Shown here: positions 6,704-51,253 of the stretch, piece after piece
Layout of the letters: the number at the start of each line of letters is the position of its first letter
Position numbering within the stretch: the first letter of the stretch is position 1
Sequence record: NC_070980.1
DNA: 64,000 nucleotides
Source of the DNA: Escherichia phage vB_EcoP_SU7
Strand: one strand, 5' to 3'
Program-made: the position numbers and the translations under genes
The notes under the pieces: model-generated
Databases searched by the model: none
The model's input: the letters and a program-made list of their open reading frames with translations, nothing else
What the model was told of the DNA's origin: nothing

Positions 6704-6707
6704 CAAA

Positions 6708-6731
6708 TAGGGGCTTCGGCCCCTTTTATTG
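6708..6731 (+). terminator. rho-independent terminator
   Basis: GGGGC-TTCG-GCCCC hairpin followed by a T-run. Confidence 0.6.
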
Positions 6732-6750
6732 TTTTTAATTGGAGGTACTT

Positions 6751-7719: not shown

Positions 7720-7720
7720 T

Positions 7721-8752: not shown

Positions 8753-8764
8753 TAAGGAGTTTTT

Positions 8765-9562: not shown

Positions 9563-9571
9563 GGAGGACGT

Positions 9572-10624: not shown

Positions 10625-10633
10625 GGAGGAGCT

Positions 10634-11602: not shown

Positions 11603-11616
11603 TTAGGAGAATAATT

Positions 11617-13284
11617 ATGCAACAAACTTCTTATGCGTATCTTCGCAGTCAAGACCCAAGAAATCAGATTTATGGTGTTAAACAAGGGGCCGCTTCGGCC
11701 TCTCCATACATGGCAAGACCTGCTTACCCAGCTGCTGATGTTTCAATGTATAGTCAGAGACCTCCTGCCTCTCCTGTAGGTTTATCCTCTCTTGTTGCTA
11801 CTGCTCAAGAAGACCAAGAAGCTATGTTAAATCCGGGATTTAGGCAGCGCCTTATGGAAGCAGAGAATCAAGGGACTCCTACAAGCCTTCAGGGTATTGA
11901 TATTGGCGAACCAGCTCCTGCTATGAATAACCCAGATCTATCCTCTGATGAGGGTCTACAAGCTGCTGGGTTGATGCCTAGTGACCCACTTCCTGTTACT
12001 CCTCCTCGTAAACCTCTGGAAGAAACAGATAAAGAGTTCTCTCCAGTTCAGGTGGAACAGGCTCAGAATGTTATTAACACTTTAGCTAATAGTAATCCAG
12101 CTCCTGAAGGTATGGCTGGTGCAACTCGTGCTAAAGACCAAGAACGTATTAATAATGATATTATGGAAGTAGCTAAAGCTAAAGATCCAGCACAAGCTTG
12201 GAATGAGCTTCAGAAGCAACCGTTCTACCAGAAGTCTAGTTTCTATACTGGCTTAATGGGTGTTGGTCTTTCTATCATGTCAGGTAAATCCCCTATTGAA
12301 GCTTTCCAGATTGGTTCTGGCTTAGCTGCTCAGGATGAAACTAAACAACAACTAGAAGCCAACCGTGATGCTCTGTTAGAACAAGGCTATTCTCAAGATT
12401 CAGTTGCTGCTGCAATTGCTTCGGGAGATCCCTCCCTTCTCAAAATGCGTCAGATTAGTCCTCAGGAGAAGATGGCTCTTGCTGCTCAGGATGAAGAACG
12501 TGCTAATCGTGAGTGGGATAGACGTCAACAGATTCAAGAGAATTCGATGCGGGAACGTGCTGCTGAAACTCGTCGTGCTGCTGAAGAACGTGCTAATGCT
12601 CAGTTCGAGAAACAGAAAGAACTTATTGGATATCGTGATCAAGTTAAAGCAGAGCGTGCAGAGAAGGCTGCTCAGAGCTTTACTTTCAACCCTAAAGAAG
12701 TTCGTCTGGCTCAGAACACAGCAGAAGGTACAGTTGCTAAGCAGTGGGCAGAGAAAGCAGGTCTGTTCAACCAGTCTCATAAGGACTTGGATTTAGCAGA
12801 CAAAGCTGTTAAGGATAAGGATTACCAAACTGCTCGTTCTGCTTACATGCAGGCTATTATGAACTCCGCAAGGGCAGAAATTGGTGCTAACCGTTCTCTC
12901 CAAGCTGATGACTTGGCTCACTTTGCAGAAGACCCGTCAATCTTCGTTAAGGTTGGTAATACTTGGTCCCTTAAAGCAGGCTATCGTCCTTCTGATGCTG
13001 CTCTGTCATATGCTCGTAAGCAGGCAACTGTTGGTGCTACTTCCGCTGAGAAAGGTGTGAAGGATGCTAAGAAAGCAACAATTGAGGCATATATCGGTTC
13101 TGGTATGGATAAGAAAAGAGCTACAGCTCTTGTCAACCGTGCTATCCCATCTGCTGGTTTCTATGACCCATTCGGTACGTTTGAGAGTGAAGCTGAAGCA
13201 GCTGTTGGTGGAGATACTACAAATCCTCGCTTAACAGGTGCTCTTTCTTCTTCAGCGGCAGATACGAGTTGGATGTTCCAGTAA
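11617..13284 (+). CDS. internal virion / ejection protein (unknown)
   Basis: 555-aa ORF with RBS; charged coiled-coil middle. Confidence 0.6.
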   Translation: MQQTSYAYLRSQDPRNQIYGVKQGAASASPYMARPAYPAADVSMYSQRPPASPVGLSSLVATAQEDQEAMLNPGFRQRLMEAENQGTPTSLQGIDIGEPAPAMNNPDLSSDEGLQAAGLMPSDPLPVTPPRKPLEETDKEFSPVQVEQAQNVINTLANSNPAPEGMAGATRAKDQERINNDIMEVAKAKDPAQAWNELQKQPFYQKSSFYTGLMGVGLSIMSGKSPIEAFQIGSGLAAQDETKQQLEANRDALLEQGYSQDSVAAAIASGDPSLLKMRQISPQEKMALAAQDEERANREWDRRQQIQENSMRERAAETRRAAEERANAQFEKQKELIGYRDQVKAERAEKAAQSFTFNPKEVRLAQNTAEGTVAKQWAEKAGLFNQSHKDLDLADKAVKDKDYQTARSAYMQAIMNSARAEIGANRSLQADDLAHFAEDPSIFVKVGNTWSLKAGYRPSDAALSYARKQATVGATSAEKGVKDAKKATIEAYIGSGMDKKRATALVNRAIPSAGFYDPFGTFESEAEAAVGGDTTNPRLTGALSSSAADTSWMFQ

Positions 13285-35990: not shown

Positions 35991-36524
35991 TTATACGCCT
36001 TTAGAAGCAACTACACCATTACTACCGTTATAACGACCCTTCACTGCATAGGAATCATCACCAGCGTGAGAGTGTTCAAACATAACCATTTGACCAACAC
36101 GCATCCCAGCACGAACTCGTAAGCTGTGATTGTGGGTAACGTTATGGAACTCAAAGGTTAGCTTACTGCTATTAAACCCTGCATCAGCCCAACCAGCATG
36201 TAAGTGGTTCAAACCACAACGAGCCATAGAGGAGCGAAGTACAAACAGACTTGAGATGTTATCTGGAAGGTTAAACTCTTCCATTGAGTGAGCTAAGAAG
36301 AACTGTCCCGGAGTGATGACAATGCCATCTTCAGGGATTTTCACTTCTTTCCACTTGAGGTTTTCTTTAGCATCAATGTCAACAATACCATCAGCCTGTT
36401 CTTCAACAAGGATAGTATCACCAATACGGATATCCACGCTAGCAGCGTTAACATATTTATGCTCCGCATCTAAAAAGCCATTATCAATAACGCTGTGTAA
36501 TTCTTGAGAACCTAAAAGACTCAT
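35991..36524 (-). CDS. dCTP deaminase / dUTPase-superfamily enzyme
   Basis: NAASVDIRIGD… and C-terminal …GMRVGQMVMFE fit the dCTP deaminase family. Confidence 0.6.
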   Translation of the reverse strand: MSLLGSQELHSVIDNGFLDAEHKYVNAASVDIRIGDTILVEEQADGIVDIDAKENLKWKEVKIPEDGIVITPGQFFLAHSMEEFNLPDNISSLFVLRSSMARCGLNHLHAGWADAGFNSSKLTFEFHNVTHNHSLRVRAGMRVGQMVMFEHSHAGDDSYAVKGRYNGSNGVVASKGV

Positions 36525-38008
36525 GAGTTTCTGTTTCCTTGTACAGATGATGCCAAATTATTAATCATATTACGAGCTGTTTCACGAGATAGTGTAACAC
36601 CTGCTAGGTTGTTGTGAAGCTCACCAGATAGCTCACGAGCTGCTGCTCGTAGTTCTGCACCAAGTGCAGTGTCAGAGTGAGCTAGACCATTACGACGACC
36701 AACAGGTCGAGGAGCTTCGTTAGCGTCATTAGCTAATGATGCAAAACCAATATGAGCAGCTTCACGAGCCGCTATAGCTGATACTCGATCTTCTGTAGGG
36801 GTTGGCAAATCACCAACTTCTACACGTTCAATATCACTAGCACGTAGACCCTGAACAACAGAGCTTACTGTTTCCCATGAACGACGAGAACGCTGCAAAT
36901 CATCCATTGACGGAGATGGAATAGGACGAGCAGTTCCTCCTTGGACATGCCATGTACGAGTATCCATTCCAGAAGAGTGTGCACTACCAAAACTACCAGT
37001 GAAAGTATCACGAGGTCTTTCATGAGGTTGTACGTTATACCCTACAACACCCCCTCGAACAGTTCGAGAAGTTTCTTCATTAAAAGCTTGAAGATCTCGT
37101 CTGTTAGTTCCCGGAGTCCAAGGTCGTGTAATTGCTTCAGCACCTATAGTGGTTAATCCACTAGACCATTCTGTCTGTAGGTTAACTTCCTCGTCCAGAT
37201 AACTACGACCCCTTTCCTGAGGAATGTTTAATGTAGTTTCCATCATCTTCAGGGTATAATGACGACGCTGATTCTGATATAAATTTACACCAGCCATAGG
37301 CCCAACTAAATCACTGATCAGATGAACTTCTGGTTCACCAAAAGCTCCCATTGCAAGGTGCATGTACTCAGTAGAACTGCTGTAAACTGCAACTGTTGCT
37401 TCAGGCCACTTTTTGTGGACATACTTCATGTCACGACTTGTCACCACAGGGATATCATTAGTATATGCCATTGCAAACATACCTTCGTTCGACACATACA
37501 TATCATCGAGAGTCATAAACCCTTGACAAATCATAGGGAAGCGACCGCTCAGAGTATCCATATCCAGAGGGAGGTTAATCATCATCTGAATCTTCACTTC
37601 GTCAATCTCCACTTCCAAAATCTCTTGGAAAGTGAAAAGTGCTTCAGCGTAGGTTGTTCCACTGATAGGCTGAACTAGTCGAGATGTAACTTGAAGCCCC
37701 TTACTCTCTGTCCAAGACAAGAAGTTGTCAAGGAACAGTGCAGCATTACTTACGTTAGCAGGGCTGTTTTCCTGACGAGTGTTCCAACGGAATCCTCCTT
37801 GAACTAGGAAGATATCAACATCATTCGGAGTTCGATTTTGGAAGAACGTATCACGGATAGCACCACCTGCAATGACAGGATAGATACCATCAGGGACTAC
37901 GTTATCTCTGATCAGATTGCGAATCAGATCAAGCCCTACGCTGAGGGCTTCTCCTTCTTGAAGGTTTAATTCAGACAATGGAATCTTAATCATTTCTACA
38001 TTTTCCAA
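36521..38008 (-). CDS. nucleotidyltransferase-domain protein (tRNA-NT / poly(A) polymerase-like head) with long C-terminal extension
   Basis: [24 protein letters not shown] matches the GG.[VI]RD…D.D head motif; C-terminal ~250 aa Ala/Arg/Ser-rich. Confidence 0.4.
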
Positions 38009-40363: not shown

Positions 40364-40570
40364 TTAGTAAAACGATCGTATTTCTTCCCACACATCATCT
40401 TGCAAGTTTCTAAAACCCTGCAAGGTTTGCTTTGTTCTGTGAATAAATTCTTCAGAGTGCTTATCAGGTGTGAGCATACTGACAAACTTTTCATAGCGAT
40501 TAATCTTCCACCGCATCTTTAAGTAGTCAGATTCAAGCTTTCTTAACTTCTGCCTGTCAGTTACTGTCAT
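40364..40570 (-). CDS. small hypothetical protein
   Basis: ORF 40364-40666 trimmed to an internal ATG; start uncertain. Confidence 0.3.
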   Translation of the reverse strand: MTVTDRQKLRKLESDYLKMRWKINRYEKFVSMLTPDKHSEEFIHRTKQTLQGFRNLQDDVWEEIRSFY

Positions 40571-40988
40571 CCTTCTCACCTGCCAGATATGCTGTCCAGT
40601 CACCCGATTCAACCAGAACATCTTGTTCTTCGTCGATGTGATAAATCCACGCTTCCACAGTTTCACCGCTGTCCAATAATACTGGAATCAGCGTACGCTT
40701 GTAAAAGGTGTATGGGTTATCATTACCACGATGACCTTCCAGACCGTCATACGGACCTTCCAGACCAGCTTGGGTTGTTTCAAAGACTTCTACACGAACA
40801 GGCTTACCATTGCTGTCATGCTCCAAAGATACACTTGGGAAGTATGCTGTGCAATATTGATACAGGTTACAGTTGTTTACTGTCCACCCTTCACCAATAG
40901 ACACACCACCGGCACGAGCATTGATAGCGTGGTTGTGTTGACCTTTTCTCAAGCTTCCGTAAGTTGCAACTAGTACTTTATCAGACAT
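40557..40988 (-). CDS. gamma-glutamyl cyclotransferase-fold protein (AIG2 / GGACT-like)
   Basis: N-terminal VATYGSLRKGQHNH matches the YG[ST]L[KR]KG..NH motif of AIG2/GGACT enzymes. Confidence 0.6.
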   Translation of the reverse strand: MSDKVLVATYGSLRKGQHNHAINARAGGVSIGEGWTVNNCNLYQYCTAYFPSVSLEHDSNGKPVRVEVFETTQAGLEGPYDGLEGHRGNDNPYTFYKRTLIPVLLDSGETVEAWIYHIDEEQDVLVESGDWTAYLAGEKDDSN

Positions 40989-41054
40989 TATATTACCTTT
41001 TAGTGTTTCAGTTAAATTCGAACTAGCCTCCTCTTTCGAAGAGGCTAAAGCAAA

Positions 41055-41240
41055 TTATTCTACTTCGAAGTGTTTGATCACACCAGTCAGTACATCAGAT
41101 TGGAATGTACCCACTAGCTCTGTACCTCGGAAGAAGTTGACATTTGTTCCAAGTGATTCAAAGCGATCTGCTTGAATGTCCAGAGATTGAATATTTCCTT
41201 CTGCTGACATTGTACGAAACATGATTGTGTATTTATTCAC
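41055..41240 (-). CDS. small hypothetical protein
   Basis: 61-aa ORF. Confidence 0.35.
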   Translation of the reverse strand: MNKYTIMFRTMSAEGNIQSLDIQADRFESLGTNVNFFRGTELVGTFQSDVLTGVIKHFEVE

Positions 41241-41479
41241 AGACTTGTTACTCCCTTATCTGCTTGTGCAATTGCGATGATACGCTCAGCACATTCCATT
41301 GAATATTTATCACCTCGTTTGAGGAAGGTGATGATTGCAGAGAACTGATTACCAATCATTCTCTTATTTGTGATACCGAACTCTTCACAGAGTTGGTTGA
41401 TAGCTTTACGAGAGCCTACAATAAGAGGCTCTTTTTCTTCGGTCATTCCACGGCTGATCAAATCTTCGATAGACAACAT
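41237..41479 (-). CDS. small hypothetical protein
   Basis: 80-aa ORF coupled to neighbours. Confidence 0.4.
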   Translation of the reverse strand: MLSIEDLISRGMTEEKEPLIVGSRKAINQLCEEFGITNKRMIGNQFSAIITFLKRGDKYSMECAERIIAIAQADKGVTSL

Positions 41480-41505
41480 TACAAATTCCTTTTTGTTTAA
41501 TTTAA

Positions 41506-42741
41506 TTACAGAGTTACTGCTACTTCGCTACCTTCAACATTGACAGACTCTAACTTGCGAGGGTTATGAATCTGGACTGGATTGACCGGAACGTTCCAAC
41601 CACTGCGGTAGAAGTTACGACCATCACAGAACAGGATGACATTGGCAGACATTGCATTCGGTTGCAGGTTGTTGTGGACATGACGGATATTTGCAATCCA
41701 GTAGCCACGAGACAAAGTGTAGCCAGTAGGTGCATTACGAATAGTTTGAGTATTCATCTGACCTTCCAGTTGCATTTCTTCAGGAACCACATCAACTGAA
41801 TCAATCGGCTGTGCTACTTGTCCTTCCAGTGCAAAGTTTTCATCATCAGCACTTTCACTGTCAGCAACCAATTCACCGTCCCCGTCTTCAATCGGAGTCT
41901 GGTAAACCACTTTATACTGAGGGGTATAGAGAGGGTTCTGAGCTTTAACAAACTCAAGAATGTTGTGACGATAAGTATCCAGAGTCGTACCAGTCAGTCC
42001 CGGTGCTGTGTTAACTTCCAGTACCCATGCTTCTTGACCTTTGGTGATAATATCAACTGCACCGAAATCCAGACCCATTGATTCAACAGCTTTCACCGCA
42101 TTGATCAGAGAGGCATCATTCGGAGCATCTGTGAAGGAGCTTGAGTAAACCCAGCCAGTGTGGTGATTACGAATATCTTCACGATAGTTAGGGTCTTCGC
42201 GATAACCATTGCGACGAATCTTCTTCTGAACATAGGTGATTACACCTTTGAACACATGGACACGCCATTCACGACGTGGGCCTTGAATACCTTTAGTGTA
42301 CAGCTCAGCCTGATCAACTGTAGTGTTAGGCTCTACAACAACAATACCTGAACCAGAGTGACCAGTCAGCTCGTGACGCTCATACACAATGTTGCCAGCG
42401 TTTGACCACTCCTGAGCAGTCTCTTGAACATCTGTGTATTCCACAGTTTTAACACCTGCTTGGTCCATCACACTGAAAGCACGACGTTTGTTCGCTGCCA
42501 TATGTAAGGCTGCGGTACGGTTAAGGACGGTTGCAGAACCAAAGAATGATTCAGGATAGCGACGGTTCCCGTAGTTAACAACCACATCATCTTCACGAGA
42601 ACGCCAGCGGCTATTCTCTGAAAGAAGCCCCATCACGTTAGCATTGATGCGTTCATCACGGATAGTATCACTGATAGCAGATACCAGAGCGTTAACAGAA
42701 TCAGACGGGCCATACGGAAGAACACGGATACGAGTAGTCAT
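41506..42741 (-). CDS. ATP-grasp ligase
   Basis: AWVLEVNTAPGLTG is the ATP-grasp Mg-ATP E-x-N motif; 411 aa. Confidence 0.65.
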   Translation of the reverse strand: MTTRIRVLPYGPSDSVNALVSAISDTIRDERINANVMGLLSENSRWRSREDDVVVNYGNRRYPESFFGSATVLNRTAALHMAANKRRAFSVMDQAGVKTVEYTDVQETAQEWSNAGNIVYERHELTGHSGSGIVVVEPNTTVDQAELYTKGIQGPRREWRVHVFKGVITYVQKKIRRNGYREDPNYREDIRNHHTGWVYSSSFTDAPNDASLINAVKAVESMGLDFGAVDIITKGQEAWVLEVNTAPGLTGTTLDTYRHNILEFVKAQNPLYTPQYKVVYQTPIEDGDGELVADSESADDENFALEGQVAQPIDSVDVVPEEMQLEGQMNTQTIRNAPTGYTLSRGYWIANIRHVHNNLQPNAMSANVILFCDGRNFYRSGWNVPVNPVQIHNPRKLESVNVEGSEVAVTL

Positions 42742-42743
42742 TT

Positions 42744-42974
42744 TTAGATACCTTTTAGTTTAAGAATTTCGTTACGACAGGATTGAATTTTAGCTTCGAT
42801 TGCCCAATACTCAGCGAACATTTCGTCTTCTTGGGCATCGCTTGGAGAGTCGATTAAGTTAAAAGCAAACGGATACAGCTTTCGCTGCTCCGTTACCAGT
42901 TGTTGAAGTCGGAGTTGTTGATACTCCAGCATTGTCAGGTGAGGCTTAGCTCCCTTGCTTGACATGAGGCTCAA
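42744..42974 (-). CDS. small hypothetical protein
   Basis: 76-aa ORF directly downstream of the ATP-grasp gene. Confidence 0.4.
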   Translation of the reverse strand: MSLMSSKGAKPHLTMLEYQQLRLQQLVTEQRKLYPFAFNLIDSPSDAQEDEMFAEYWAIEAKIQSCRNEILKLKGI

Positions 42975-43179
42975 CTTTAATCCCCTTCATTTTAACATAG
43001 TCAGCCAACACGTTGTTGATAACGGTTGGAAAAGGGATTTCTACTGGAGAATCAACCAGCTTCCCAATACCTTCTTGCATCCACTTCTGAATTGCTCGGA
43101 GGTTATCACATCCTGTGCTTGTCATCGGAATACGGCGGGTAGTTACCACGTTATCCAACATCAGTTTACGAACTTCCAT
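42946..43179 (-). CDS. small hypothetical protein
   Basis: 77-aa ORF. Confidence 0.4.
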   Translation of the reverse strand: MEVRKLMLDNVVTTRRIPMTSTGCDNLRAIQKWMQEGIGKLVDSPVEIPFPTVINNVLADYVKMKGIKVEPHVKQGS

Positions 43180-43190
43180 AACTATACCTC

Positions 43191-45224
43191 TTAGTGTTTA
43201 CCTTTACAGTAATCTGAATTACAGATCACCCTGTTTTCTTTGTTCAGTGAGCAAGTTTCTGCATCACGCCACGGAATTTGTTTATAACAGACTGCACAAA
43301 ACCCAATTGAAGTCCAGAGGGCTTTTGTGAACTCGGCTGTTCGTTGTCCATCATAGCTGACAACTGTTTTTCGGAGAGAGGTTGACTTTTTTGGAAATGT
43401 CTCCGCTTTCTCAGCGGGTACCTCCTTTGGGGAATTCTTTGGACCATAAACAGAGATGGCATAAGTATCACCACCACGTTTTTCCAAATACGAATTAGGA
43501 ACATCTGCAAGTGTAATATCCCCTGAACGTTTTGCTGAGCTAACCATTACGATCATACGGCTAAGCATACGTTCATCAACACGAACAGCTACTTCAGGAC
43601 GACGTGGGTTGGTTGTGTCTACTGCTTTAGTCCAAATATAACCCTCAGATAGAGTAACATTCTTTACTTTATCTTTGATTTCTTTGGAGCAGATATAACA
43701 AACATCTTCACCACGAAGTTTACTCATTTCGTTGTCAAACTCGAAATCAGTCTTGACTTCACCACAGACAGCACATACGCCCAAAGGCACATCTTCTTCA
43801 TCTTCAGAGATTTTAGATAACGCTTCGAAGCATTCTGGATGCCAGTATGCTTGATAAGCAAACACAGCCTTACGAGCATCTTTCCAGTCAATGTGCTTAT
43901 CACAACCACCACAATCACCATGAGAGTGAGATTCCCAGAACTTACGAGTGACTTCTACACCATTTTTAGTGATGAAGGAGTCCTCTGCATCAAAAGGGAT
44001 GTCATCATCAAAATCAGCAGTAGTGCTTTGAGGCTCCTTATCTGTAGCATCAACAAACAGCCCTGAAGTTAGTACGAGGCGAATCATACTGTCCACTTCG
44101 GAGATACAAGCAATCGTCCCGCGATATACTACCTTTGGGTTTTCAAGAGCCTTAAGATATTCATCTTTGGCTACGTTGTGAACATCCCCTTCGACATACT
44201 CTTGGGCTTTATCGTCGTAGATGTAACCAATCATCTTACCACGATCTGTGTTGTTATAAGCATGGAACTCGTGAGGAATAATATCCACACGACCATCACG
44301 ACGATAAGGAAGACCACGATCGGCAGCCAGTTTGTTCTGGTCTTCAATCGCTTTACGACGACGAATGTCTCCGCTTGTCACGCCGGGCTTGTCGTCTTTG
44401 TTTCCGTAAATGTCGCTTGTGCTGCTGCTTGATTTGTTTGTCTGTTGGTTCTGATATAGAGAGGAGTTCGAGTAATAGCCGCCCCAGCGACTCGTTATCG
44501 TAAAAACCGGAAGCTTGTGCTCCACCTCTTGAACCAGAGTCATACGACTGTTAGACACATCAAAGATATACTCAGTTCCCACTTTACATTCGAAGTGGTC
44601 ATTGATACGGTTCTTGTGGGATTTAGAACGCTCTAAAATCCACATAAGCATAGCTTCTTCAGAAGCCCCAAACCAATCTAAACCACAACGGGCTAGGTGG
44701 AAAGGACGCTCATCATTACGGATAATGTGAAGCGTGTTGTCTTTAGCATCATGCCAAATCAAAGTGAATGCACCATCCAGTTTTTGGATAGTCTCTGCTG
44801 CTCCAATGGTATTAATTGAGTGGCAGATGTTTTCACTATCAACTTCGAAACGCTTACTGTCAGGAAGGAGATCTTGATCTAACAGGGTTCCATTATGAAC
44901 CAGAGTAATATCCCCGTGAGTAAATGGGTGAGCATTTCGAGCATTGACAGCCCCACGAGTGGCATGTCGGCTGTGACCAACAATCCACGAAGGAGGAACT
45001 ACGTAGTTCGTAAGCCCTTTGGTAATATTTGTATATTCTGTCTGGAGCATAAAAGCATAAGAAGGAAGAGCTTCTTTATAAGAGAAGACTTGCTTTTCAC
45101 CTTTACGCTGACCAAACACACCAGTTGAGTGCTGTCCACGGAAAACACCAGCATACAGAAGTTGGTTGAAAATATCCAAATCTGTTGAGGTCATGTTGCC
45201 GCCAGCTAATACGATACCACAAAT
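43191..45224 (-). CDS. class II glutamine amidotransferase-like (Ntn hydrolase) protein with C-terminal Cys-rich zinc-binding region
   Basis: In-frame CGIVLAGG sits just 5' of the track ATG and is preceded by AGGTGG plus an ATT codon 8 nt downstream; GVFRGQHSTG; C-terminal CxxC clusters. Confidence 0.5.
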   Translation of the reverse strand: MCGIVLAGGNMTSTDLDIFNQLLYAGVFRGQHSTGVFGQRKGEKQVFSYKEALPSYAFMLQTEYTNITKGLTNYVVPPSWIVGHSRHATRGAVNARNAHPFTHGDITLVHNGTLLDQDLLPDSKRFEVDSENICHSINTIGAAETIQKLDGAFTLIWHDAKDNTLHIIRNDERPFHLARCGLDWFGASEEAMLMWILERSKSHKNRINDHFECKVGTEYIFDVSNSRMTLVQEVEHKLPVFTITSRWGGYYSNSSLYQNQQTNKSSSSTSDIYGNKDDKPGVTSGDIRRRKAIEDQNKLAADRGLPYRRDGRVDIIPHEFHAYNNTDRGKMIGYIYDDKAQEYVEGDVHNVAKDEYLKALENPKVVYRGTIACISEVDSMIRLVLTSGLFVDATDKEPQSTTADFDDDIPFDAEDSFITKNGVEVTRKFWESHSHGDCGGCDKHIDWKDARKAVFAYQAYWHPECFEALSKISEDEEDVPLGVCAVCGEVKTDFEFDNEMSKLRGEDVCYICSKEIKDKVKNVTLSEGYIWTKAVDTTNPRRPEVAVRVDERMLSRMIVMVSSAKRSGDITLADVPNSYLEKRGGDTYAISVYGPKNSPKEVPAEKAETFPKKSTSLRKTVVSYDGQRTAEFTKALWTSIGFCAVCYKQIPWRDAETCSLNKENRVICNSDYCKGKH

Positions 45225-45301
45225 TTTCTAATCCACCTGAAGGGTAAACCCTTTCATCTAATTAACCTTTAAATGCGCCCTTTATCAGAGCGCCCATTGT
45301 G

Positions 45302-46402
45302 TTACAGCAGTCGTTCTAATTGCATTTCCAGATGGTCTGGAATGTAATCAGTGATGTTATTATCACTGCTACCTGATTCACGCATCAGAGCAAACATGTG
45401 ACGAATTTCACGAACCGTTGCGATTCGAGTGCTTTCAATCTGAGGGGTGTAGTAGGTCATGATCTCTTCATAGACAGTGTTGGCATTACCGCGCACATAT
45501 CCCAAGAAACCATAGAAGTCATTCATATCACGTAAGTTGATAAGGACTTCACCATCAGGGCCAGTCTGTTGCACACGAACACGACCAACCAAAGTTACAG
45601 ATTGCTCACGACAGAACAGAATATCACGAGCAAGACGATACCCTTCAGTGAGATCACTGTCTCTTGGAGTATAGTCTAGGGGTAGATGTTGAATCATAGG
45701 AGCGAAGCGCAGCTCATTCAACTTCTCAACATAAGCTTCATTGTCTAAATCTGCATATTCAACAGCCAGTTTCTTGAGAACCAAGAAGCGGTTGACCAGA
45801 TTCAGAAGTTGGCTCTTTTTCCACTTCGGCTCTGAGATACGGAACTCAACAGAACCAAATTGAGATAGAGGCAAAAGATTAAGGGAGGTATATTTATCCC
45901 AGCTATTAACAAGAGAGTGGAAGAAAGCTTCCCCGTCTCGGTTGAACGCTGACGAAGCATTCATAACTTGTGCTTGAACGACAGCAAAAGCTGGACAGAA
46001 GTTGCTACGATAGCGATGGTATCCAGAACATTTGAACATCATCTTTTCATAGAACGTCCATCCAAGAATAACTTTCTTAAGGATATTACTATCAGCGTCA
46101 CGCATATCCATATGAACGTGAGTGGAACAGCGCCAAGTTCCCTCGGCTCCAGAATCCTGTACTGCTTCACTCAGATTGTTAATAGCACGAAGTAATTCTT
46201 CACCGTTGTAAGGTCGTGCACATACTAATTCACAACCATCACGAAGAGAGCCATCTTCAGTACAAACCCACATATCAGCGTCAATGTTAGTTGTACCTTC
46301 GACTTCTAACTCAATACCAACACCACACTGAAAAGCAATACTTGGATGCGGTTCAGATAAGCGAGGGTTACGGTATCCAAAAACTTGTGCTACGGTTGTC
46401 AT
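45302..46402 (-). CDS. glutamine-synthetase-like amidoligase (putative carboxylate-amine ligase)
   Basis: GIELEVEG and STHVHMD metal-binding-type motifs; sits next to GATase II-like and AIG2-like genes. Confidence 0.4.
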   Translation of the reverse strand: MTTVAQVFGYRNPRLSEPHPSIAFQCGVGIELEVEGTTNIDADMWVCTEDGSLRDGCELVCARPYNGEELLRAINNLSEAVQDSGAEGTWRCSTHVHMDMRDADSNILKKVILGWTFYEKMMFKCSGYHRYRSNFCPAFAVVQAQVMNASSAFNRDGEAFFHSLVNSWDKYTSLNLLPLSQFGSVEFRISEPKWKKSQLLNLVNRFLVLKKLAVEYADLDNEAYVEKLNELRFAPMIQHLPLDYTPRDSDLTEGYRLARDILFCREQSVTLVGRVRVQQTGPDGEVLINLRDMNDFYGFLGYVRGNANTVYEEIMTYYTPQIESTRIATVREIRHMFALMRESGSSDNNITDYIPDHLEMQLERLL

Positions 46403-47025
46403 AATGATTCCACCAACTCTACATTATATGATGACAGGTCTGAAGAAATATGCTTGAACTTCTCCAGAAGGTTTAAAGATTGACGACCATTGTCGCCATA
46501 ACCAGCTTCAAGAAGCACGTTTCCAACGTAAGCTCCTTTGTAATAAACTTTTCCATCGACAGGATTGATATAGATGAAACGAGTAACCAACCCTTCAAAC
46601 TCTGGATTAAACAGGTTGTACACCAAATCACCCGGAATCGAACGTCCGAGAGAAGGTGGAGTACCACGAAGTTTATTCCCCATCAATCCTTTAGCTCGCT
46701 GACGAACAGGGTTGATATGGGTCCAGCTCACCATGTTATTACCATGCTGAAGGTATCCTACATCTGGAGACTCCAGAATGAGGCTGTGATCAAACACTGG
46801 GATATTACTAACAATCTGACGCTCAAACTGACCTTCGGAGTTTTTAGTCCAGCGTTCCGCCTCAAACACTAAAGACATTTCAGCGTCGTGTGAGTAGTCG
46901 TCGATATCAAAGTTACCTTGCTGACGAACATCAAGCACATATAGAGGGAGGTTTTTACCATCAGGTGATCGCTGAGCAATCCATGTTCCACAATAATAGT
47001 GTTGAAAATCTCTTAACAAGCTCAC
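46399..47025 (-). CDS. hypothetical protein (cluster member)
   Basis: 208-aa ORF, stop-start overlap with the amidoligase. Confidence 0.5.
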   Translation of the reverse strand: MSLLRDFQHYYCGTWIAQRSPDGKNLPLYVLDVRQQGNFDIDDYSHDAEMSLVFEAERWTKNSEGQFERQIVSNIPVFDHSLILESPDVGYLQHGNNMVSWTHINPVRQRAKGLMGNKLRGTPPSLGRSIPGDLVYNLFNPEFEGLVTRFIYINPVDGKVYYKGAYVGNVLLEAGYGDNGRQSLNLLEKFKHISSDLSSYNVELVESL

Positions 47026-47034
47026 AATATCACC

Positions 47035-47844
47035 TTATACAATCTGGAGTTTAGAGGAGAATTTATCCGCTTCTTTAACATCGTTACTGTTGATGATGTT
47101 GTGAAGCTTTTCAATTGGAAGGCGAGAGTGAAGTGACATCAATACTTCCATATCACAGCCTTGAACAACCTTATCAACTTGCTCATAAACAAACTTGCGG
47201 GTTGACTTCTCGCCAATCCAGAAGTTAGAAAGAGAACGATATTCAATACCGTAATCTTTGTAGCGAATGGCAGAAGCCTTTCCGTATAACTCTTTACGAC
47301 GAGTATCTTTATCCATGATCACAGCTGGCAAGGACAGGAAGTAATCACACAACACACCTAACATCATTTGAGTCTGACGACTAATTTCCAGCGTACCAGT
47401 GACGCCAAGGTGAACATGACCACCAGCAGTACGCAGACCTTTGTCTGTCGCTACTGGAGATGGGTTTTTCTGACCAGTGAAGGCGTTGAAATCAGGAGTA
47501 CAACCAAATACAAAGGCTGACGGATGGAAAGATTCCATCTCTTCTGAAGTGAACACATGAGAGCTAATCCCAAGTGCTGCCTCCATGCCACGTTCATTGA
47601 GAACTTTGTTAGTCAGATCAATACCACGCTGAATGTTATCATTAAACGCTTCAAACCCTTTCTGTGGGTTAATATCGAACTCGGCCAGAACGTTGTCTTC
47701 TTGAAGACGAACATCAGGGGCCAGATCAATTTTGTTGTCTTTAGAGCAGCCCAGCTTACCAGCCACAGAGGTGATAATACCAGAAGCAGTACGAACAAAC
47801 ATTTCCGGATCCGACCCTATTAAGAATTTACGTTTAGTAGTCAT
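47035..47844 (-). CDS. hypothetical protein, possibly a second carboxylate-amine ligase-like enzyme
   Basis: IGSDPEMFV and GGHVHLG motifs; assignment weak. Confidence 0.3.
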   Translation of the reverse strand: MTTKRKFLIGSDPEMFVRTASGIITSVAGKLGCSKDNKIDLAPDVRLQEDNVLAEFDINPQKGFEAFNDNIQRGIDLTNKVLNERGMEAALGISSHVFTSEEMESFHPSAFVFGCTPDFNAFTGQKNPSPVATDKGLRTAGGHVHLGVTGTLEISRQTQMMLGVLCDYFLSLPAVIMDKDTRRKELYGKASAIRYKDYGIEYRSLSNFWIGEKSTRKFVYEQVDKVVQGCDMEVLMSLHSRLPIEKLHNIINSNDVKEADKFSSKLQIV

Positions 47845-48311
47845 GCTTTAGTCCAACCTTTATGAGATAGATAGTTTTTAAATCTGCCACTGTGCACAGC
47901 GCCCATGTGGCCTTGATGTAAGTCGTTGCTTCTACAGAAGTCTTTAAGATTGTATATTGTTACAACCTCGCCATCTGGAGATCTAAACTTCCAAAATCTA
48001 GCATTCCCTTTCACAGCGTTTTCTTCACTGGTCAGAAGTTGGAAATTACTTGGGTGGTTATTAAGTTTATCGCCATCGATGTGATCAACAGTCATACCAT
48101 CCGGAATAGGCCCAATAAACAATTCATACATAAGTCTATGTAATAAAAAGTTCCTTGTTATCTTTTCAGGAGCCTGAACTGTTGTAAACTTAAGATAACC
48201 ATCTTTATCAGGAAACAGTTTCCTCTGTTTCCCTGTTCTTGCATGGAATATACTACCGTCTTCGAACACCAAGAAGGTAGCAACTCCGACTACTAACTCC
48301 CTAAATTCCAT
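47841..48311 (-). CDS. HNH homing endonuclease
   Basis: VDHIDGDKLNNHPSNFQLLTSEENAVKG. Confidence 0.6.
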   Translation of the reverse strand: MEFRELVVGVATFLVFEDGSIFHARTGKQRKLFPDKDGYLKFTTVQAPEKITRNFLLHRLMYELFIGPIPDGMTVDHIDGDKLNNHPSNFQLLTSEENAVKGNARFWKFRSPDGEVVTIYNLKDFCRSNDLHQGHMGAVHSGRFKNYLSHKGWTKA

Positions 48312-48335
48312 AGAGAACCAATAAGGAAAGCACGC

Positions 48336-49286
48336 TTAGTCATTGTAATACTCCACGAGTTCATCAAAAAGGGAAACAACACGAGCACCAGCTTCTTCTG
48401 GTGTCATTGAGGAAGGTACTGCTTGCATCAGACGTTCGATAAAACTTCGAACAGTAATTCTGTCCATACGCTGATCTAATACTTCTCGCTTGTGACCTGC
48501 ACAAGTTGACCAGAGACGTAACCACTCACTCATACTCTCATAATGGTCAGGGTCTTGGTCACGACGACGTGCCATACGACGGAGAACTCCATCATTATGG
48601 TTTCGTACATAACCATCTCGGTTGTCATCAACACCGAATACATTCTGAACCCATACGTTTTCAGAAAATTCATCAGTGGTGCAAATTAATGGCAGAAATG
48701 CAATTGCACTCATGTCGCCATCAAAATAAGTCGCTGCTGACTCATCGGTTGAGTCTACGTCATTACTATAACACCAGCGACCAAAGAAGTTACGACTTAA
48801 ACCAGCTAAGCGTAGAGCTAAACCGATTCGTTGTCGCTTAAGCAACTCTTCCTTGTCTTGTACGCCTTCCTGAAGGAACTCCATTCCATTAAAATCACCA
48901 TCCAAATAGCTACGGATGGTCATTAGTCCAGTAAACACCTTGTCTGCTGGATGGTTTCGAAGGTTCACGGCAATGGAGTTCACCGAAGTGACAGAGAACA
49001 TATCTTTATAGCAAGACATTGAGTTAAAAATATCTGTTGCTTCAACTAAAGCTCTTTCGATATCTTTAGCTGGCACGCCATAAAAATTGTGAGGCCAGAA
49101 GTTAATAACTTCAATTTCTGAAGTTCTATCACGAAGGCTTGTTCGGTTACGACTTTCACCGTTAATGTCTGTAACAGAATACATGTGCATACAGTTAAAA
49201 GTACCAAAGCAAGCTCTTCCTTTGAACACTGACTCACCGAAATCCTCTGCCGGTGTTACCGGAGCAATCGATGCGGAGATTGACAT
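48336..49286 (-). CDS. hypothetical protein (cluster member)
   Basis: 316-aa ORF, no motif recognised. Confidence 0.5.
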   Translation of the reverse strand: MSISASIAPVTPAEDFGESVFKGRACFGTFNCMHMYSVTDINGESRNRTSLRDRTSEIEVINFWPHNFYGVPAKDIERALVEATDIFNSMSCYKDMFSVTSVNSIAVNLRNHPADKVFTGLMTIRSYLDGDFNGMEFLQEGVQDKEELLKRQRIGLALRLAGLSRNFFGRWCYSNDVDSTDESAATYFDGDMSAIAFLPLICTTDEFSENVWVQNVFGVDDNRDGYVRNHNDGVLRRMARRRDQDPDHYESMSEWLRLWSTCAGHKREVLDQRMDRITVRSFIERLMQAVPSSMTPEEAGARVVSLFDELVEYYND

Positions 49287-49294
49287 ATTCGCCT

Positions 49295-50512
49295 CTATTT
49301 ATTAAAGAATAGTTTTTCCATAATGGTTTCCCACTCTTCTGAGGGGAGGGTTGAGAACCCGTTTCCGTGAAGCCTGTTTGTCATGCAACTAATAATATTG
49401 TACATGTTGTAGCTTCGGGTGGATTCTGTTCCATTGTTCCAGTTGTAACCGAAAACAATTTTATCGAAGGAGGTTTTATCCGTAGTTACTTCTCGGATAA
49501 ACTCAACCAAGAGCGATTTCTCTGTGATGACCGCACGTTCACCATCTGGCAGATTGCAATACTGAGGAAGAAGGATTGGTAAGAACATCGAATTGTTCAC
49601 TCGACAATCACGAACACCTTCACTGCGATAGATTAGGCTTGAGAAGTCTTCATCACGCAGGTGTCCTTCACCTTCAGTGTATTCACACTGTCGCCACTTG
49701 GTCTGGCGAGGCTCAATCATTGTACTACCAACGCCTACTGTATACAGAGACGCTTGGAAAATACATGAATCGTAATCATTCCCTGTTAAAGCAACACGTT
49801 CGTTACCGAACACATCCACTGAAGAGTTGATCAGTCGGCTGAATGCAAGAGAGGCTAGTGGAGACCAACCTTTCTTATACATCTTGTTCAGCATTTCATA
49901 CACAGCAGATTTTTCATCATCTGTATAGAATGTACGATTCAGCATCAGATAGAACAGAGCGCGATCAGCAGGACAACCATCAGTACAAACACCCATGAAT
50001 CCTACTTCATGCCATACCAGACATGAGTCAGAATCTTTATCCATGAATGCTTCAAAGGCTTCCATTACAGCCCTGTCAGTAACATCAGGACGGTTGTTTT
50101 CTTCTGCCCATGTTTCTACATGAGAAGGGGGACGAGGGTCTCCATTCTCCACCCCTTCGCGGAAATATTGAGTGGTAATAGGCTTTTTATCACCATAACG
50201 TTTTACACCATAAGCGGGAAGGTGTGTACCAGAGTTCCAGATGTACTTGATTTCGGACATAGGCATCATGTTTTCGAGAACATTCTCTTCAGCAGTGCCT
50301 TGACGAACCATCATACCCTCACTCCACACCTTAATACGGATATTCCAGCCAAAATTGCTGTCATATGCGTTGTAGTAGTCAGGATAACCATCTTCATCTT
50401 CATCATAATCACCACCCTGATAGTAACCTGCTTTCAGGAAACCATAACAAGGAGGCCAGACGGTTACAACATCATCTGATTCTTTCCAGCTTTGAAGTGT
50501 TACAGGGAACAT
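49295..50512 (-). CDS. hypothetical protein (cluster member)
   Basis: 405-aa ORF, acidic Tyr-rich N-terminus, no motif recognised. Confidence 0.5.
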   Translation of the reverse strand: MFPVTLQSWKESDDVVTVWPPCYGFLKAGYYQGGDYDEDEDGYPDYYNAYDSNFGWNIRIKVWSEGMMVRQGTAEENVLENMMPMSEIKYIWNSGTHLPAYGVKRYGDKKPITTQYFREGVENGDPRPPSHVETWAEENNRPDVTDRAVMEAFEAFMDKDSDSCLVWHEVGFMGVCTDGCPADRALFYLMLNRTFYTDDEKSAVYEMLNKMYKKGWSPLASLAFSRLINSSVDVFGNERVALTGNDYDSCIFQASLYTVGVGSTMIEPRQTKWRQCEYTEGEGHLRDEDFSSLIYRSEGVRDCRVNNSMFLPILLPQYCNLPDGERAVITEKSLLVEFIREVTTDKTSFDKIVFGYNWNNGTESTRSYNMYNIISCMTNRLHGNGFSTLPSEEWETIMEKLFFNK

Positions 50513-50523
50513 CTTTTACCTCT

Positions 50524-50886
50524 TTACTCTGCTACCAAAAGGCTCAGAGATTTGCGAATGTAGTCAATACTACGGAAGTTTCGATAGTTCTCTTGGAAGC
50601 GCATTTTTTCAAACTCTGCTTCCTGAAGCTCTACCTCTGCTGCTTTATATCCTGATAAAGCTAAACTTACCACATCCTGAGGTAAGGTATTACGACGGCG
50701 AATAAGATATTTATTCGCTTTTAGTTTACCTTGTGCACGAGCCATTTTGGCCTTTGCCGCCTTGATACCATGAGAAATCCAAAGCAGTTGCTGTTTCAGA
50801 TCTTCCTCATCCATACCACCTAAATCATTTGCTACTTTATGAAGCGTAGACAGGTTCACATGGCCTTTAATGGGGCGTAGGTTCAT
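50524..50886 (-). CDS. hypothetical protein
   Basis: 120-aa ORF, helical. Confidence 0.45.
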   Translation of the reverse strand: MNLRPIKGHVNLSTLHKVANDLGGMDEEDLKQQLLWISHGIKAAKAKMARAQGKLKANKYLIRRRNTLPQDVVSLALSGYKAAEVELQEAEFEKMRFQENYRNFRSIDYIRKSLSLLVAE

Positions 50887-51253
50887 AACTTCTCCTGTTT
50901 ATCACATTGATTGGTCAGCCAGTTGTAAGCCCCTCTGTTGTTCTTGCTTAACTCACAAGATGCAAAAGAATAGGTTCTGACAAACCCTACGGTGGCTAAG
51001 CAAATAAAGATTGCTGCCAATAAGAACTTAACTTTCAACTTATTATCCATACAACCTCTTCTTTGAACTTAAAAAAGGACTCTCCTAAGAGAGCCAAGCT
51101 TTAAGGCCAATTAAATAGATATCACCCAATATCTGTGGATAACCTGCTCTTAAAATATTCTATCCGACGGATGTTCGAGGATTACTCCTCTCCCTAGCAT
51201 CGGCCCCATACGGGTAAGATTAAATTAAGATTAGGTTAGTTGAGCCAGAATAG

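Follow-up and report, generated by a model that had tools for sequence, protein, structure and literature searches.

A conserved phiEco32-type cluster of predicted amide-bond ligases and glutamyl-processing enzymes beside the primase/helicase of Escherichia phage vB_EcoP_SU7

Ligases of the GCS fold and of the ATP-grasp type, combined with enzymes that remove gamma-glutamyl groups, are the logic of the glutathione, ergothioneine (EgtA/EgtC), butirosin (BtrJ/BtrG) and Puu/Pau polyamine pathways. In butirosin synthesis, BtrJ is the ATP-grasp ligase and BtrG an AIG2-fold cyclotransferase. A phage neighbourhood of amidoligase genes of the phiEco32 type was described computationally by Iyer, Abhiman, Burroughs and Aravind (Mol Biosyst 2009); the cluster analysed here is the type example of that system and is thus already known as a predicted one. 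The initial annotation had pointed to neighbourhoods of amidoligase, GAT-II and AIG2 genes, known from comparative genomics without a defined substrate, which agrees with the naming of PF14395 after phiEco32 and with the later papers that cite the 2009 study for precisely this cluster. A literature search found no experimental work on the cluster, its substrate or its product. New here are the ATT start of the amidotransferase gene, the barrel model and recurrence of protein D, the identity of the gp79 homologue, the HNH insertion and the adjacency to the primase/helicase across lineages.

The window, the whole 64,000-nucleotide stretch of phage SU7 DNA that was analysed (accession: NC_070980.1), is that of a Suseptimavirus/Kuravirus-type E. 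coli podophage with 97% identity to the BASEL phage Bas86. The cluster (40557–50512) comprised 13 co-directional ORFs, all on the minus strand like every feature described below, and was filled by orthologues of phiEco32 gp77–gp88. Its base composition was that of the remaining window. The co-directionality and the coordinates given in the initial annotation were confirmed, but the count of nine genes plus an HNH gene was too low, as the ORFs of 61, 80, 76 and 77 amino acids had been omitted. Genes were separated by gaps of 8–11 nt or overlapped at ATGA in the window, phiEco32, the Privateer-like contigs and the LUZ24-like phage. Three ATP-dependent amide-bond ligases make up this conserved "phiEco32-type" set, together with one enzyme that cleaves glutamine, one that removes gamma-glutamyl groups and several proteins without a recognised fold. 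Because the same gene order was kept in phiEco32, the LUZ24-like phage UFV-P2 and Privateer-like contigs of ~90–100 kb, this arrangement is not due to chance.

Profile searches confirmed every enzyme family that had been named from the raw sequence. Ligase C (47035..47844; phi32_86 homologue), previously listed as a possible second ligase, exceeded the Pfam gathering score for PF14395, 'Phage phiEco32-like COOH.NH2 ligase-type 2' (E 1.6e-8), matched phrog_3815 (E 1e-112) and belongs to the GCS/GS-like fold family; it was present in 310 phage records by tblastn. Ligase E (45302..46402; phi32_84 homologue), the glutamine-synthetase-like amidoligase, exceeded the gathering score for Amidoligase_2 (PF12224, E 2.2e-8), matched phrog_7469 (E 3e-142) and belongs to the GS-like fold family, and a sequence search for solved structures returned no match to it. 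Ligase I (41506..42741; phi32_80 homologue) is the ATP-grasp enzyme, with matches to phrog_2599 (E 4e-169), NCBIfam MptN (1e-9) and rimK_fam (5e-7), both far under their cut-offs, Pfam RimK (7e-4, slightly under gathering) and RimK in the PDB (E 3e-3), as well as weak matches to D-Ala-D-Ala ligases (E 2.5e-5). Inspection revealed the magnesium/ATP motif AVDI...VLEVNTAPGL. An assignment of ligase I as an orthologue of RimK, Ddl, MptN or CofF was rejected, as its scores were far under the equivalog cut-offs; the RimK or Ddl orthology named at the outset as grounds for abandoning the proposed system was not found.

The HNH homing endonuclease gene (47841..48311; HNH_3, E 3e-17) is a mobile insertion in the 5′-end of the ligase C gene. 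The segment 48293..48343 encoded MTKRAFLIGS and was thereafter out of frame until the stop; it matched the intact ligase start of IME267, a phage without the HNH gene, and is the leftover of the original 5′-end of ligase C. The reading frame of ligase C resumed past the HNH gene with its N-terminus recoded as MTTKRKFLIGSDPEM. The HNH gene was missing from IME267 and most relatives, the matches of which covered 95% of the query in two to three pieces, and UFV-P2, Phriendly and RHph_I3_11 carried HNH genes at different cluster positions. Its presence in the cluster stands, but its membership of the pathway was rejected.

Protein F (43191..45224; phi32_83 homologue) is a class-II (Ntn) glutamine amidotransferase (GATase_6, E 2.6e-14 in Pfam) with the amidotransferase domain at residues 1 to ~225 and a tail of ~450 amino acids. 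The C-terminal third contained three Cys-rich zinc-ribbon-like modules, with four CxxC motifs at 438, 484, 509 and 643, and the terminal Cys cluster was also found in the UFV-P2 and TC6 counterparts. Both the family and the Cys-rich C-terminus had been recognised from the raw sequence; the ATG at 45194 taken there as the start was rejected, since a start at the ATT at 45224 restores the catalytic N-terminal Cys. ATT (45224) is the start codon, in the context ..GGTGGATTAGAAA ATT TGT GGT.., and in all other lineages the TGT-GG was immediately preceded by ATG or TTG. From this start, Cys2 aligned to position 2 of GlmS (PRK00331, E 5.7e-11). The amidotransferase domain shared 29–34% identity with its UFV-P2 and TC6 counterparts, and the motifs Cys1, RG.HSTG, H.R.AT.G...NAHPF, HNG and VDSE were kept across lineages.

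Protein J (40557..40988; phi32_77 homologue) scored over the gathering score for GGACT/AIG2 (PF06094, E 9e-16), covering profile positions 2–119 of 120, and matched phrog_2520 (E 4e-41). With the motifs YGSLRKG and ..GLEG.., seen by inspection, J is probably an AIG2/GGACT-like gamma-glutamyl(amine) cyclotransferase, as first proposed. The 80-amino acid ORF at 41237..41479 showed 76% identity to phi32_79 and is the known RNA-polymerase-binding regulator and transcription factor gp79, which sits inside the block yet outside the amide chemistry. Protein G (42946..43179, 77 amino acids; phi32_82 homologue) matched DUF7195 (PF23825, E 3e-19) and came after F in three lineages; contigs L003–L005 had an equivalent in the same position and in UFV-P2 a similar 72-amino acid ORF came after the GATase. 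The helical protein H (42744..42974, 76 amino acids; phi32_81 homologue) had a counterpart of conserved sequence at the same place in L003 and L005, and a family search returned no match to it. The 61-amino acid protein (41055..41240; phi32_78 homologue) had equivalents by position and, weakly, by sequence in contigs L003 and L005, relative to which its C-terminal Glu varied. Between J and the primase/helicase, a 68-amino acid protein (40364..40570) occupied the phi32_76 position, which is annotated in Bas86, IME267 and phiEco32; it had no significant similarity to its L003 equivalent.

Proteins A (49295..50512, 405 amino acids; phi32_88 homologue), B (48336..49286, 316 amino acids; phi32_87 homologue, phrog_13102) and D (46399..47025, 208 amino acids; phi32_85 homologue) were rightly left as uncharacterised, as they had no Pfam, NCBIfam, PADLOC or PDB sequence match; A also had no fold match in the PDB. 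B is a distant paralogue of A: an hhalign comparison gave E 0.067 over 136 columns, both contained the motifs PAD[RK]..LM..R, WxQ and G[HY]xR[DN], and P0102 bridged the two (E 6e-4 library-wide to the A profile, hhalign E 9e-4 to the B profile). Foldseek found that GAP52 and Aeromonas phage LAh_8 each encode two A-like folds. The structure model of D predicted SH3-like barrels of KOW/Tudor-like type, and the invariant residues were R108..K112-G113, in a low-confidence loop of the model, and K163. D was encoded directly 3′ of ligase C in all examined lineages with a D-like ORF, and the order C-D-E was found in most. Beyond A, a basic 120-amino acid protein (50524..50886; phi32_89 homologue, phrog_11370) with a pI of 9.8 and no TM segment shared 32% identity with an ORF of the Privateer-like contig L003 that lies immediately upstream of the A gene there and overlaps it. 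A terminator-like hairpin (51095–51078) lies upstream of the gene for this basic protein, which is possibly the first of the block.

A second architecture, found in TC6, Phriendly, RHph_I3_11 and the crAss-like cr108_1, contained C, a D-like ORF (none in cr108_1), E, GAT-II, ATP-grasp and a ~206-amino acid protein annotated in the records as a class-I glutamine amidotransferase or peptidase C26, which would be another type of gamma-glutamyl-cleaving enzyme. The block adjoined the primase/helicase in every lineage examined, including those of LUZ24-like, Privateer-like, Zobellviridae and Rhizobium phages and a crAss-like phage from another order. Mass spectrometry has detected the SU10 orthologues of the ATP-grasp protein, GAT-II, AIG2 and the 23-kDa D protein.

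Our preferred reading, to which we give a probability of about 40%, is that the genes of the cluster are expressed together as a single pathway of the cytoplasm, which makes a gamma-glutamyl-type amide conjugate and afterwards trims it. We infer each chemical step and the acceptor, and co-function from the conserved order. The phage would turn the block on along with its early and middle genes. C and E (GCS/GS-fold) and I (RimK/MptN-like ATP-grasp) would convert a carboxylate to an acyl-phosphate and then to an amide with an amine, together extending an acceptor step by step with glutamate or another amino acid. F, with intact Cys1 and glutamine-binding residues, would cleave glutamine and amidate one activated carboxylate, or may instead cleave a gamma-glutamyl amide as EgtC does; J would release the gamma-glutamyl unit as 5-oxoproline with a free amine, as BtrG does and GGACT does on gamma-glutamylamines. 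The novel-fold paralogues A and B, with D, may be subunits particular to each lineage, with the role of holding or presenting the acceptor. The acceptor that we favour, and this is the weakest step, is a small molecule of the cytoplasm (an amino acid, polyamine, or cofactor-like amine or carboxylate); the product would then be a short metabolite resembling a peptide, for which glutamate had served as a transient handle. This reading is preferred because the five enzyme families were confirmed and the motifs of F are kept across lineages, because gene order and tight packing are conserved and the second architecture retains the core, because four of the proteins are made in SU10 and no cluster protein contained a TM segment, and because the combination of enzymes follows the logic of the glutathione, ergothioneine, butirosin and polyamine pathways named above. 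Against it, no acceptor-specific domain was recognised in the cluster proteins, no functional homologues were found for A, B and D (half of the conserved proteins), and, of the components usual in metabolite pathways, a carrier protein, a transporter and a tailoring enzyme were all absent from the block. The replication-gene adjacency and the zinc ribbons of F would also fit a macromolecular target.

Peptide tagging, in which a host or phage protein would receive glutamate or a short peptide from the ligases, on a side chain or at a terminus, and would lose it again through F and J, is unlikely. It has precedents in RimK acting on S6, PafA attaching Pup and tubulin polyglutamylation, and GGACT enzymes cut epsilon-(gamma-glutamyl)-lysine. 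The nearest kin of ligase I are the RimK-family alpha-L-glutamate ligases, but with scores far under the family cut-offs; D, directly 3′ of C and modelled as an SH3/Tudor-like barrel, and with an invariant K163, could serve as substrate or adaptor with its invariant, flexible basic loop, but no small protein of the block has a conserved C-terminal Glu/Gln as in Pup or LysW. Iyer et al. (2009) reportedly presented the ligases as peptide-tag systems. Alteration of a cytoplasmic peptidoglycan precursor or other envelope peptide, changing the surface so that superinfecting phages are excluded, is a prediction for phiEco32 that secondary citations credit to the same study. The D-Ala-D-Ala ligase matches fit it, but the block contained no Mur-ligase, lipid-II or export component, its proteins are all soluble, and these phages are strictly lytic with short latent periods. 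Glutamine-dependent stem-peptide amidation (MurT/GatD, AsnB-type enzymes) is known chemistry that counts in its favour. Amidoligase and GATase genes have, however, been reported in viruses of archaeal hosts, which have no murein (host assignment in silico only), and we regard an envelope target as quite unlikely.

In another reading, a nucleotide, or DNA after its replication, would receive a group derived from an amino acid or an amine. This would explain the restriction-modification resistance of Gordonclarkvirinae, which have no known modification pathway, and would suit the primase/helicase adjacency, the zinc ribbons of F, the KOW/Tudor-like barrel of D and the 8 EcoRI, 22 EcoRV and 5 EcoKI sites in the window. 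The adjacency may, however, stem from common descent of the replication module in podophages, the enzymes and uncharacterised proteins of the cluster are acidic, and GAGCTC, CTGCAG, GCATGC, CCWGG and GATC were strongly avoided in the window, as expected of restriction-exposed DNA. The scanned cluster ORFs had no Pfam matches of base-exchange, hydroxymethylase, kinase or aGPT-Pplase type, no such modification gene was annotated in the examined part of the Bas86 record, and the annotation of the phage lists a thymidylate synthase and a dCTP deaminase of the ordinary kind. The DNA of a cluster-carrying phage, tf, was cut with HaeIII, sealed with T4 ligase and directly Sanger-sequenced. DNA modification is improbable, and a link between the cluster and the resistance of these phages to restriction, though possible, is unsupported. 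It is highly improbable that these are unconnected auxiliary metabolic genes boosting host glutamine or nitrogen metabolism, as which amidoligase and GATase are listed in several genome papers: up to a dozen tightly packed genes are co-inherited in fixed order across phage families, which points to one pathway, and no enzyme reached an orthologue-level score to GlmS, PurF, AsnB, RimK or Ddl.

Compared with known systems, the phage block resembles butirosin BtrJ/BtrG, at the level of enzyme class only, in combining an ATP-grasp ligase with an AIG2-fold enzyme, which would take off a gamma-glutamyl group as 5-oxoproline; it differs from butirosin in lacking genes for an acyl-carrier protein, a PLP decarboxylase and aminoglycosides, and in having, in addition, two ligases of the GS/GCS fold and an Ntn amidotransferase. 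In EgtA/EgtC, GshA/GshB and PuuA/PuuD, a GCS/GS-fold ligase forms a gamma-glutamyl amide that a GAT-type amidohydrolase takes off, and the class-I GATase/peptidase C26 annotation in the second phage architecture recalls PuuD. Unlike those pathways, the phage block has no EgtB/D/E, GshB-specific or polyamine-oxidation genes, and its proteins scored far under the cut-offs for EgtC (E 6e-3) and housekeeping enzymes. The RimK/MptN/CofF alpha-L-glutamate ligases were the best ATP-grasp matches of ligase I, with bit scores of 20–38 against curated cut-offs of 143–350, and ligase I has an extra C-terminal domain of ~120 amino acids relative to them. The phiEco32 neighbourhood showed gene-for-gene orthology from phi32_77 through phi32_88, sharing the phiEco32-named ligase family, Amidoligase_2, GAT-II, ATP-grasp and AIG2; apart from the HNH insertion in the 5′-end of its ligase gene, the SU7 copy is essentially the same.

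The window was that of a phiEco32-like E. coli podophage of the subfamily Gordonclarkvirinae. The interval between 40557 and 50512 was matched over its full length, with 97.3% identity, by OliverMaurmann_Bas86 of the BASEL collection, and Suseptimavirus IME267 showed 98% identity across the 95% of the interval that it matched. Kuravirus relatives had 75–89% DNA identity and, in total, 97 phage records matched. All of the ORFs in the cluster were located on the minus strand and were one-to-one syntenic with phi32_77–88; the phiEco32 order was kept for the genes encoding Amidoligase_2, the class-II glutamine amidotransferase (GATase), the ATP-grasp ligase and the AIG2 protein. The cluster is the phiEco32 system, which was previously known as a computational prediction. 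It extends over ~10 kb, or approximately one-eighth of a 76-kb genome, and as the G+C content was uniform along the window the cluster was considered native to this genome. The initial annotation had described nine genes and an HNH gene; each of the enzyme families that it named was confirmed by profile search, but the interval contained 13 ORFs, as four small ORFs had been left uncounted. At the level of enzyme family, its interpretation as an amide-bond ligation and cleavage system is supported.

One co-linear, tightly packed block, conserved across phage families, encodes carboxylate-amine ligases of three ATP-dependent families together with an Ntn amidotransferase and a gamma-glutamyl cyclotransferase. 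The ORF between 47035 and 47844 (minus strand, as for every window feature located below), suspected initially of being a second ligase, proved to encode PF14395, "Phage phiEco32-like COOH.NH2 ligase-type 2" (ligase C; 34.5 bits against a gathering cut-off of 25, E 1.6e-8). The Amidoligase_2 gene (E) was located between 45302 and 46402 (E 2e-8) and the ATP-grasp gene (I) between 41506 and 42741. Identity of the latter with a known RimK or DdlA orthologue, which the initial annotation had named as the finding that would count against it, was not seen. Its matches to MptN (E 1e-9), rimK_fam (E 5e-7) and Ddl (E 2.5e-5) were each far under the curated cut-offs, so it is not an orthologue of any of the three; within the RimK family it scored 29.5 bits against 143 for rimK_fam, 21.6 against 331 for the RimK equivalog and 19.7 against 21 for Pfam RimK. 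The motif tested in this protein was the C-terminal ATP/magnesium-binding D...E-x-N; its sequence AVDI..VLEVNTAPGL aligned with the corresponding region of RimK, Ddl and MptN, while the whole-domain match was weak. The AIG2/GGACT-like cyclotransferase (J) was encoded between 40557 and 40988 (E 9e-16) and contained a full-length domain, with 59 bits for Pfam GGACT against a gathering cut-off of 22.8 and coverage of profile positions 2–119 of 120. Inspection identified the motifs YGSLRKG and GLEG, and we take its catalytic Glu to be the equivalent of Glu82 in human GGACT.

The class-II GATase (F) was encoded between 43191 and 45194, or up to 45224 with an ATT start (GATase_6, E 2.6e-14). A catalytic N-terminal Cys is the defining feature of Ntn amidotransferases, and the start chosen by the ORF caller, the ATG at 45194, drops this residue. 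The in-frame sequence upstream of 45194 reads TAG AAA ATT TGT GGT ATC GTA (stop-K-I-C-G-I-V), with GGTGGA located 8 nt upstream of the ATT. Initiation at the ATT (45224) would give a protein of 677 aa, and only if this codon is the translation start would Cys directly follow the initiator Met. The ATT context was identical in phiEco32, Bas86 and IME267; the Privateer-like, LUZ24-like, TC6, Phriendly, ZRK32 and crAss-like homologues had ATG or TTG directly before TGT-GG. Read from the ATT, F aligned with positions 2–198 of the model of the GlmS N-domain (E 5.7e-11). It contained FRGQHSTG, SRHATRG..NAHPF, HNGT and VDSE, which were mapped by inspection and were conserved in UFV-P2 and TC6; the glutamine-binding and oxyanion residues are presumably, in GlmS numbering, Arg26, Arg73/Thr76, Asn98-Gly99 and Asp123. 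Because the ATT start aligns at GlmS position 2 and the motifs are kept in distant homologues, the glutaminase or gamma-glutamyl-amidase site of F looks intact, judged from sequence. The ~450 aa tail of F carried four CxxC motifs in three zinc-ribbon-like modules, and the terminal Cys cluster was also present in TC6 and UFV-P2. Residues ~230–677 matched no Pfam or NCBIfam family beyond a sub-threshold zinc finger, and no ammonia-accepting synthase domain of a known family was found there. ORF callers limited to ATG, GTG and TTG lose the catalytic Cys of F, and the RefSeq record of IME267 carries the short form.

The three proteins listed initially as unknowns, A (405 aa), B (316 aa) and D (208 aa), did indeed lack a family, with no match in Pfam (to E 10), NCBIfam, PADLOC or PDB sequences by phmmer or profile. 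B is a distant paralogue of A on three lines of evidence. Alignment of A and B with hhalign gave an E of 0.067 and brought the invariant motifs PAD[RK]..LM..R, WxQ and G[HY]xR[DN] into register; a bridging protein, P0102, was matched by both the A and the B profile; and Foldseek against BFVD revealed A-like folds in GAP52 and in Aeromonas phage LAh_8, two in each genome and all of them uncharacterised. At least two conserved proteins of the cluster appear to share one fold without a PDB match. Invariant Asp, Arg and His residues are numerous, and A and B may accordingly be enzymes. Two ORFs of ~290–330 aa occupied the A/B position in the LUZ24-like, TC6, crAss-like and Rhizobium phages, and these showed no similarity to A or B by HMM, hhalign or motif search. 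Structural modelling predicted KOW/Tudor-like barrels in D. The anti-phage defence models of PADLOC gave no family at E ≤0.01 for nine cluster proteins.

Two of the embedded genes, a gp79 homologue and the HNH gene, are outside the chemistry of the cluster. An 80-aa ORF (41237–41479) located between the ATP-grasp and AIG2 genes had 76% identity to phi32_gp79, an experimentally characterised protein described as a middle-gene product, which inhibits sigma70 transcription and activates gp36-dependent transcription (PMC8948821). The HNH homing-endonuclease gene (47841–48311; HNH_3, E 3e-17; 47841–48343 with the ligase remnant) interrupts the original COOH-NH2 ligase gene after ten codons. The 5′-end of the old ligase persists as the remnant MTKRAFLIGS (48343–48314) and, beyond the HNH stop, ligase C begins anew with a recoded N-terminal copy, MTTKRKFLIGSDPEM; the Bas86 annotation presents ligase C as a two-piece join. 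The HNH gene was missing in IME267 and most relatives, and in UFV-P2, Phriendly and RHph_I3_11 HNH genes occurred elsewhere in the cluster. The phiEco32 middle-promoter consensus, TAATGTATA, occurred near the cluster as often as in shuffled sequences, and no site was present at the start of the block. Ahead of the two ORFs (55 and 120 aa) upstream of A was a hairpin resembling a terminator, GGCTCTCTTAGGAGAGTC, with a T-run after it (51078–51095); the transcription unit may begin here. The 55-aa ORF (50883–51050), just upstream of the block, had a strongly hydrophobic N-terminal segment (KD19 2.1) and encoded the sole membrane-like protein near the cluster.

The PF14395 ligase was found in at least 310 phage records, chiefly of Pseudomonas, Escherichia, Vibrio, Aeromonas and Proteus phages. 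The cluster itself, in one version or another, was observed in phages that infect Escherichia, Pseudomonas, Vibrio, Rhizobium and a planctomycete, as well as in metagenomic contigs of the Privateer-like type and a crAss-like phage from the gut. Architecture 1, present in phiEco32, the window and the Privateer-like contigs, had the order A, B, C, D, E, GATase, small ORFs, ATP-grasp, AIG2 and primase/helicase, in which AIG2 followed straight after the ATP-grasp gene or a few more small ORFs later. The LUZ24-like phage UFV-P2 had the same order, but two unrelated ORFs of ~290 aa held the A/B position. Architecture 2 was found in Zobellviridae phage TC6, Vibrio phage Phriendly, Rhizobium phage RHph_I3_11 and crAss-like phage cr108_1. 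It retained the class-II GATase, ligase C, a D-like ORF (absent from cr108_1), Amidoligase_2 and ATP-grasp, gained a protein of ~206 aa annotated in the records as a class-I GATase or peptidase C26, and likewise adjoined primase or primase/helicase genes. In cr108_1, a gut phage of the Steigviridae, the rearranged version (5691–12747 of its sequence) was located between primase and uracil-DNA glycosylase genes and encoded ATP-grasp, two unknowns of ~300 aa, a class-I GATase, the PF14395 ligase, the class-II GATase and Amidoligase_2. The cluster-bearing Privateer-like contigs (L003 and L004, 1–2950; L005, 1–270) also encoded a PRPP-synthetase-like protein paired with a NAPRTase, a combination similar to the NARP1 pathway of NAD reconstitution, and had TerC/TerD/vWA-TerF genes just upstream. 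Mass spectrometry of a PEG-precipitated lysate of SU10 had detected peptides of the ATP-grasp ligase (6), the class-II GATase (9), the AIG2 protein (2) and the 23-kDa orthologue of D (1); the cluster is expressed at the protein level and its products are made in infected cells.

The cluster was reportedly described by Iyer, Abhiman, Burroughs and Aravind in 2009. According to later citing papers, that work predicted either that the cell wall is modified and superinfection excluded or that a secondary metabolite is made; 17 years after the description, no experimental characterisation of the cluster was found in the searchable literature. We consider it probable (about 0.65) that the block constitutes one amide-forming and amide-trimming pathway. 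The ligases would extend an acceptor step by step with glutamate or other amino acids, F would carry out glutamine-driven amidation of an activated carboxylate or hydrolysis of a gamma-glutamyl amide, and a gamma-glutamyl unit would be taken off by J or, in architecture 2, by the C26-like protein. A small, cytoplasmic acceptor would be favoured, although with much less confidence than the single pathway, and the build-and-trim proposal as a whole, this acceptor included, is tentative, at somewhat below even odds. Tagging of a protein, for which D could serve as substrate or adaptor, is rather unlikely, as no Pup- or LysW-like tag was found among the small ORFs of the cluster; a Pup-, LysW- or ubiquitin-like tag was rejected because the C-termini of the 61-, 76-, 77- and 80-aa ORFs were unconserved between the window and L003/L005. 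Modification of an envelope precursor agrees with the published prediction, as it is cited, but is unlikely, given that the cluster has no envelope component and its proteins are all soluble; none contained a transmembrane segment. That these are unrelated auxiliary metabolic genes is contradicted by the conserved gene order and is highly improbable.

Modification of DNA or a nucleotide was judged very unlikely, although several observations favour it. Restriction-modification (RM) resistance is reported despite 8 EcoRI, 22 EcoRV and 5 EcoKI sites in the window, replication genes are always found next to the block, and F has zinc ribbons that, like the barrels predicted in D, could suit such a role. 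Against it, the enzymes and unknown proteins of the cluster are acidic, and DNA of the cluster-bearing phage tf behaved normally when cut with HaeIII, ligated and Sanger-sequenced. The search for a base-modifying or base-exchange enzyme was negative: the Pfam families for hydroxymethylase, 5-HMUDK, aGPT-Pplase, DpdA/QueC and Mom were absent from the cluster ORFs scanned, and the annotation of the matching part of Bas86 lists only a thymidylate synthase, a dCTP deaminase and a dNMP kinase, the first two annotated as ordinary enzymes. Some restriction sites were also strongly avoided across the whole window, with no GAGCTC (15 expected), no CTGCAG (12 expected), no GCATGC, two CCWGG and 134 GATC, about half of the 288 expected. 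For EcoRI, EcoRV and EcoKI, missing sites were rejected as the explanation of RM resistance because sites for all three enzymes are present. To our knowledge, GS-fold and ATP-grasp ligases, an Ntn amidotransferase and novel-fold proteins such as A and B are part of no known phage DNA-modification or anti-restriction pathway. It is a long shot that the cluster accounts for the broad and so far unexplained RM resistance of Gordonclarkvirinae, whether DNA or a nucleotide receives an adduct derived from an amino acid or a polyamine, or restriction is disabled by a small molecule or a protein tag. A 495-aa protein (36521–38008), whose gene is flanked by those for the dCTP deaminase and the exonuclease subunit of the polymerase, had no Pfam or NCBIfam match and is annotated in related phages as a 'nucleotidyltransferase' or as containing a class II CCA-adding enzyme domain. 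The authors of the BASEL paper suspected this nucleotidyltransferase of a role in DNA modification and pointed to it and the dCTP deaminase for RM resistance; the cluster was not discussed.

The presence of the cluster would not in itself surprise a specialist, but it is large, occurs in many phages, is expressed and includes proteins without a PDB fold match. Solving its function would define a new phage-encoded biochemical pathway and perhaps explain the RM resistance of a phage subfamily. As Bas86–89, which bear the cluster, can be propagated on E. coli K-12 in which the O16 antigen has been restored, it is directly testable by genetics and mass spectrometry. For the amide-forming and amide-trimming pathway that we favour, the build-and-trim logic is that of the glutathione, ergothioneine, butirosin and Puu/Pau pathways, and by analogy with these the phage cluster may operate likewise.
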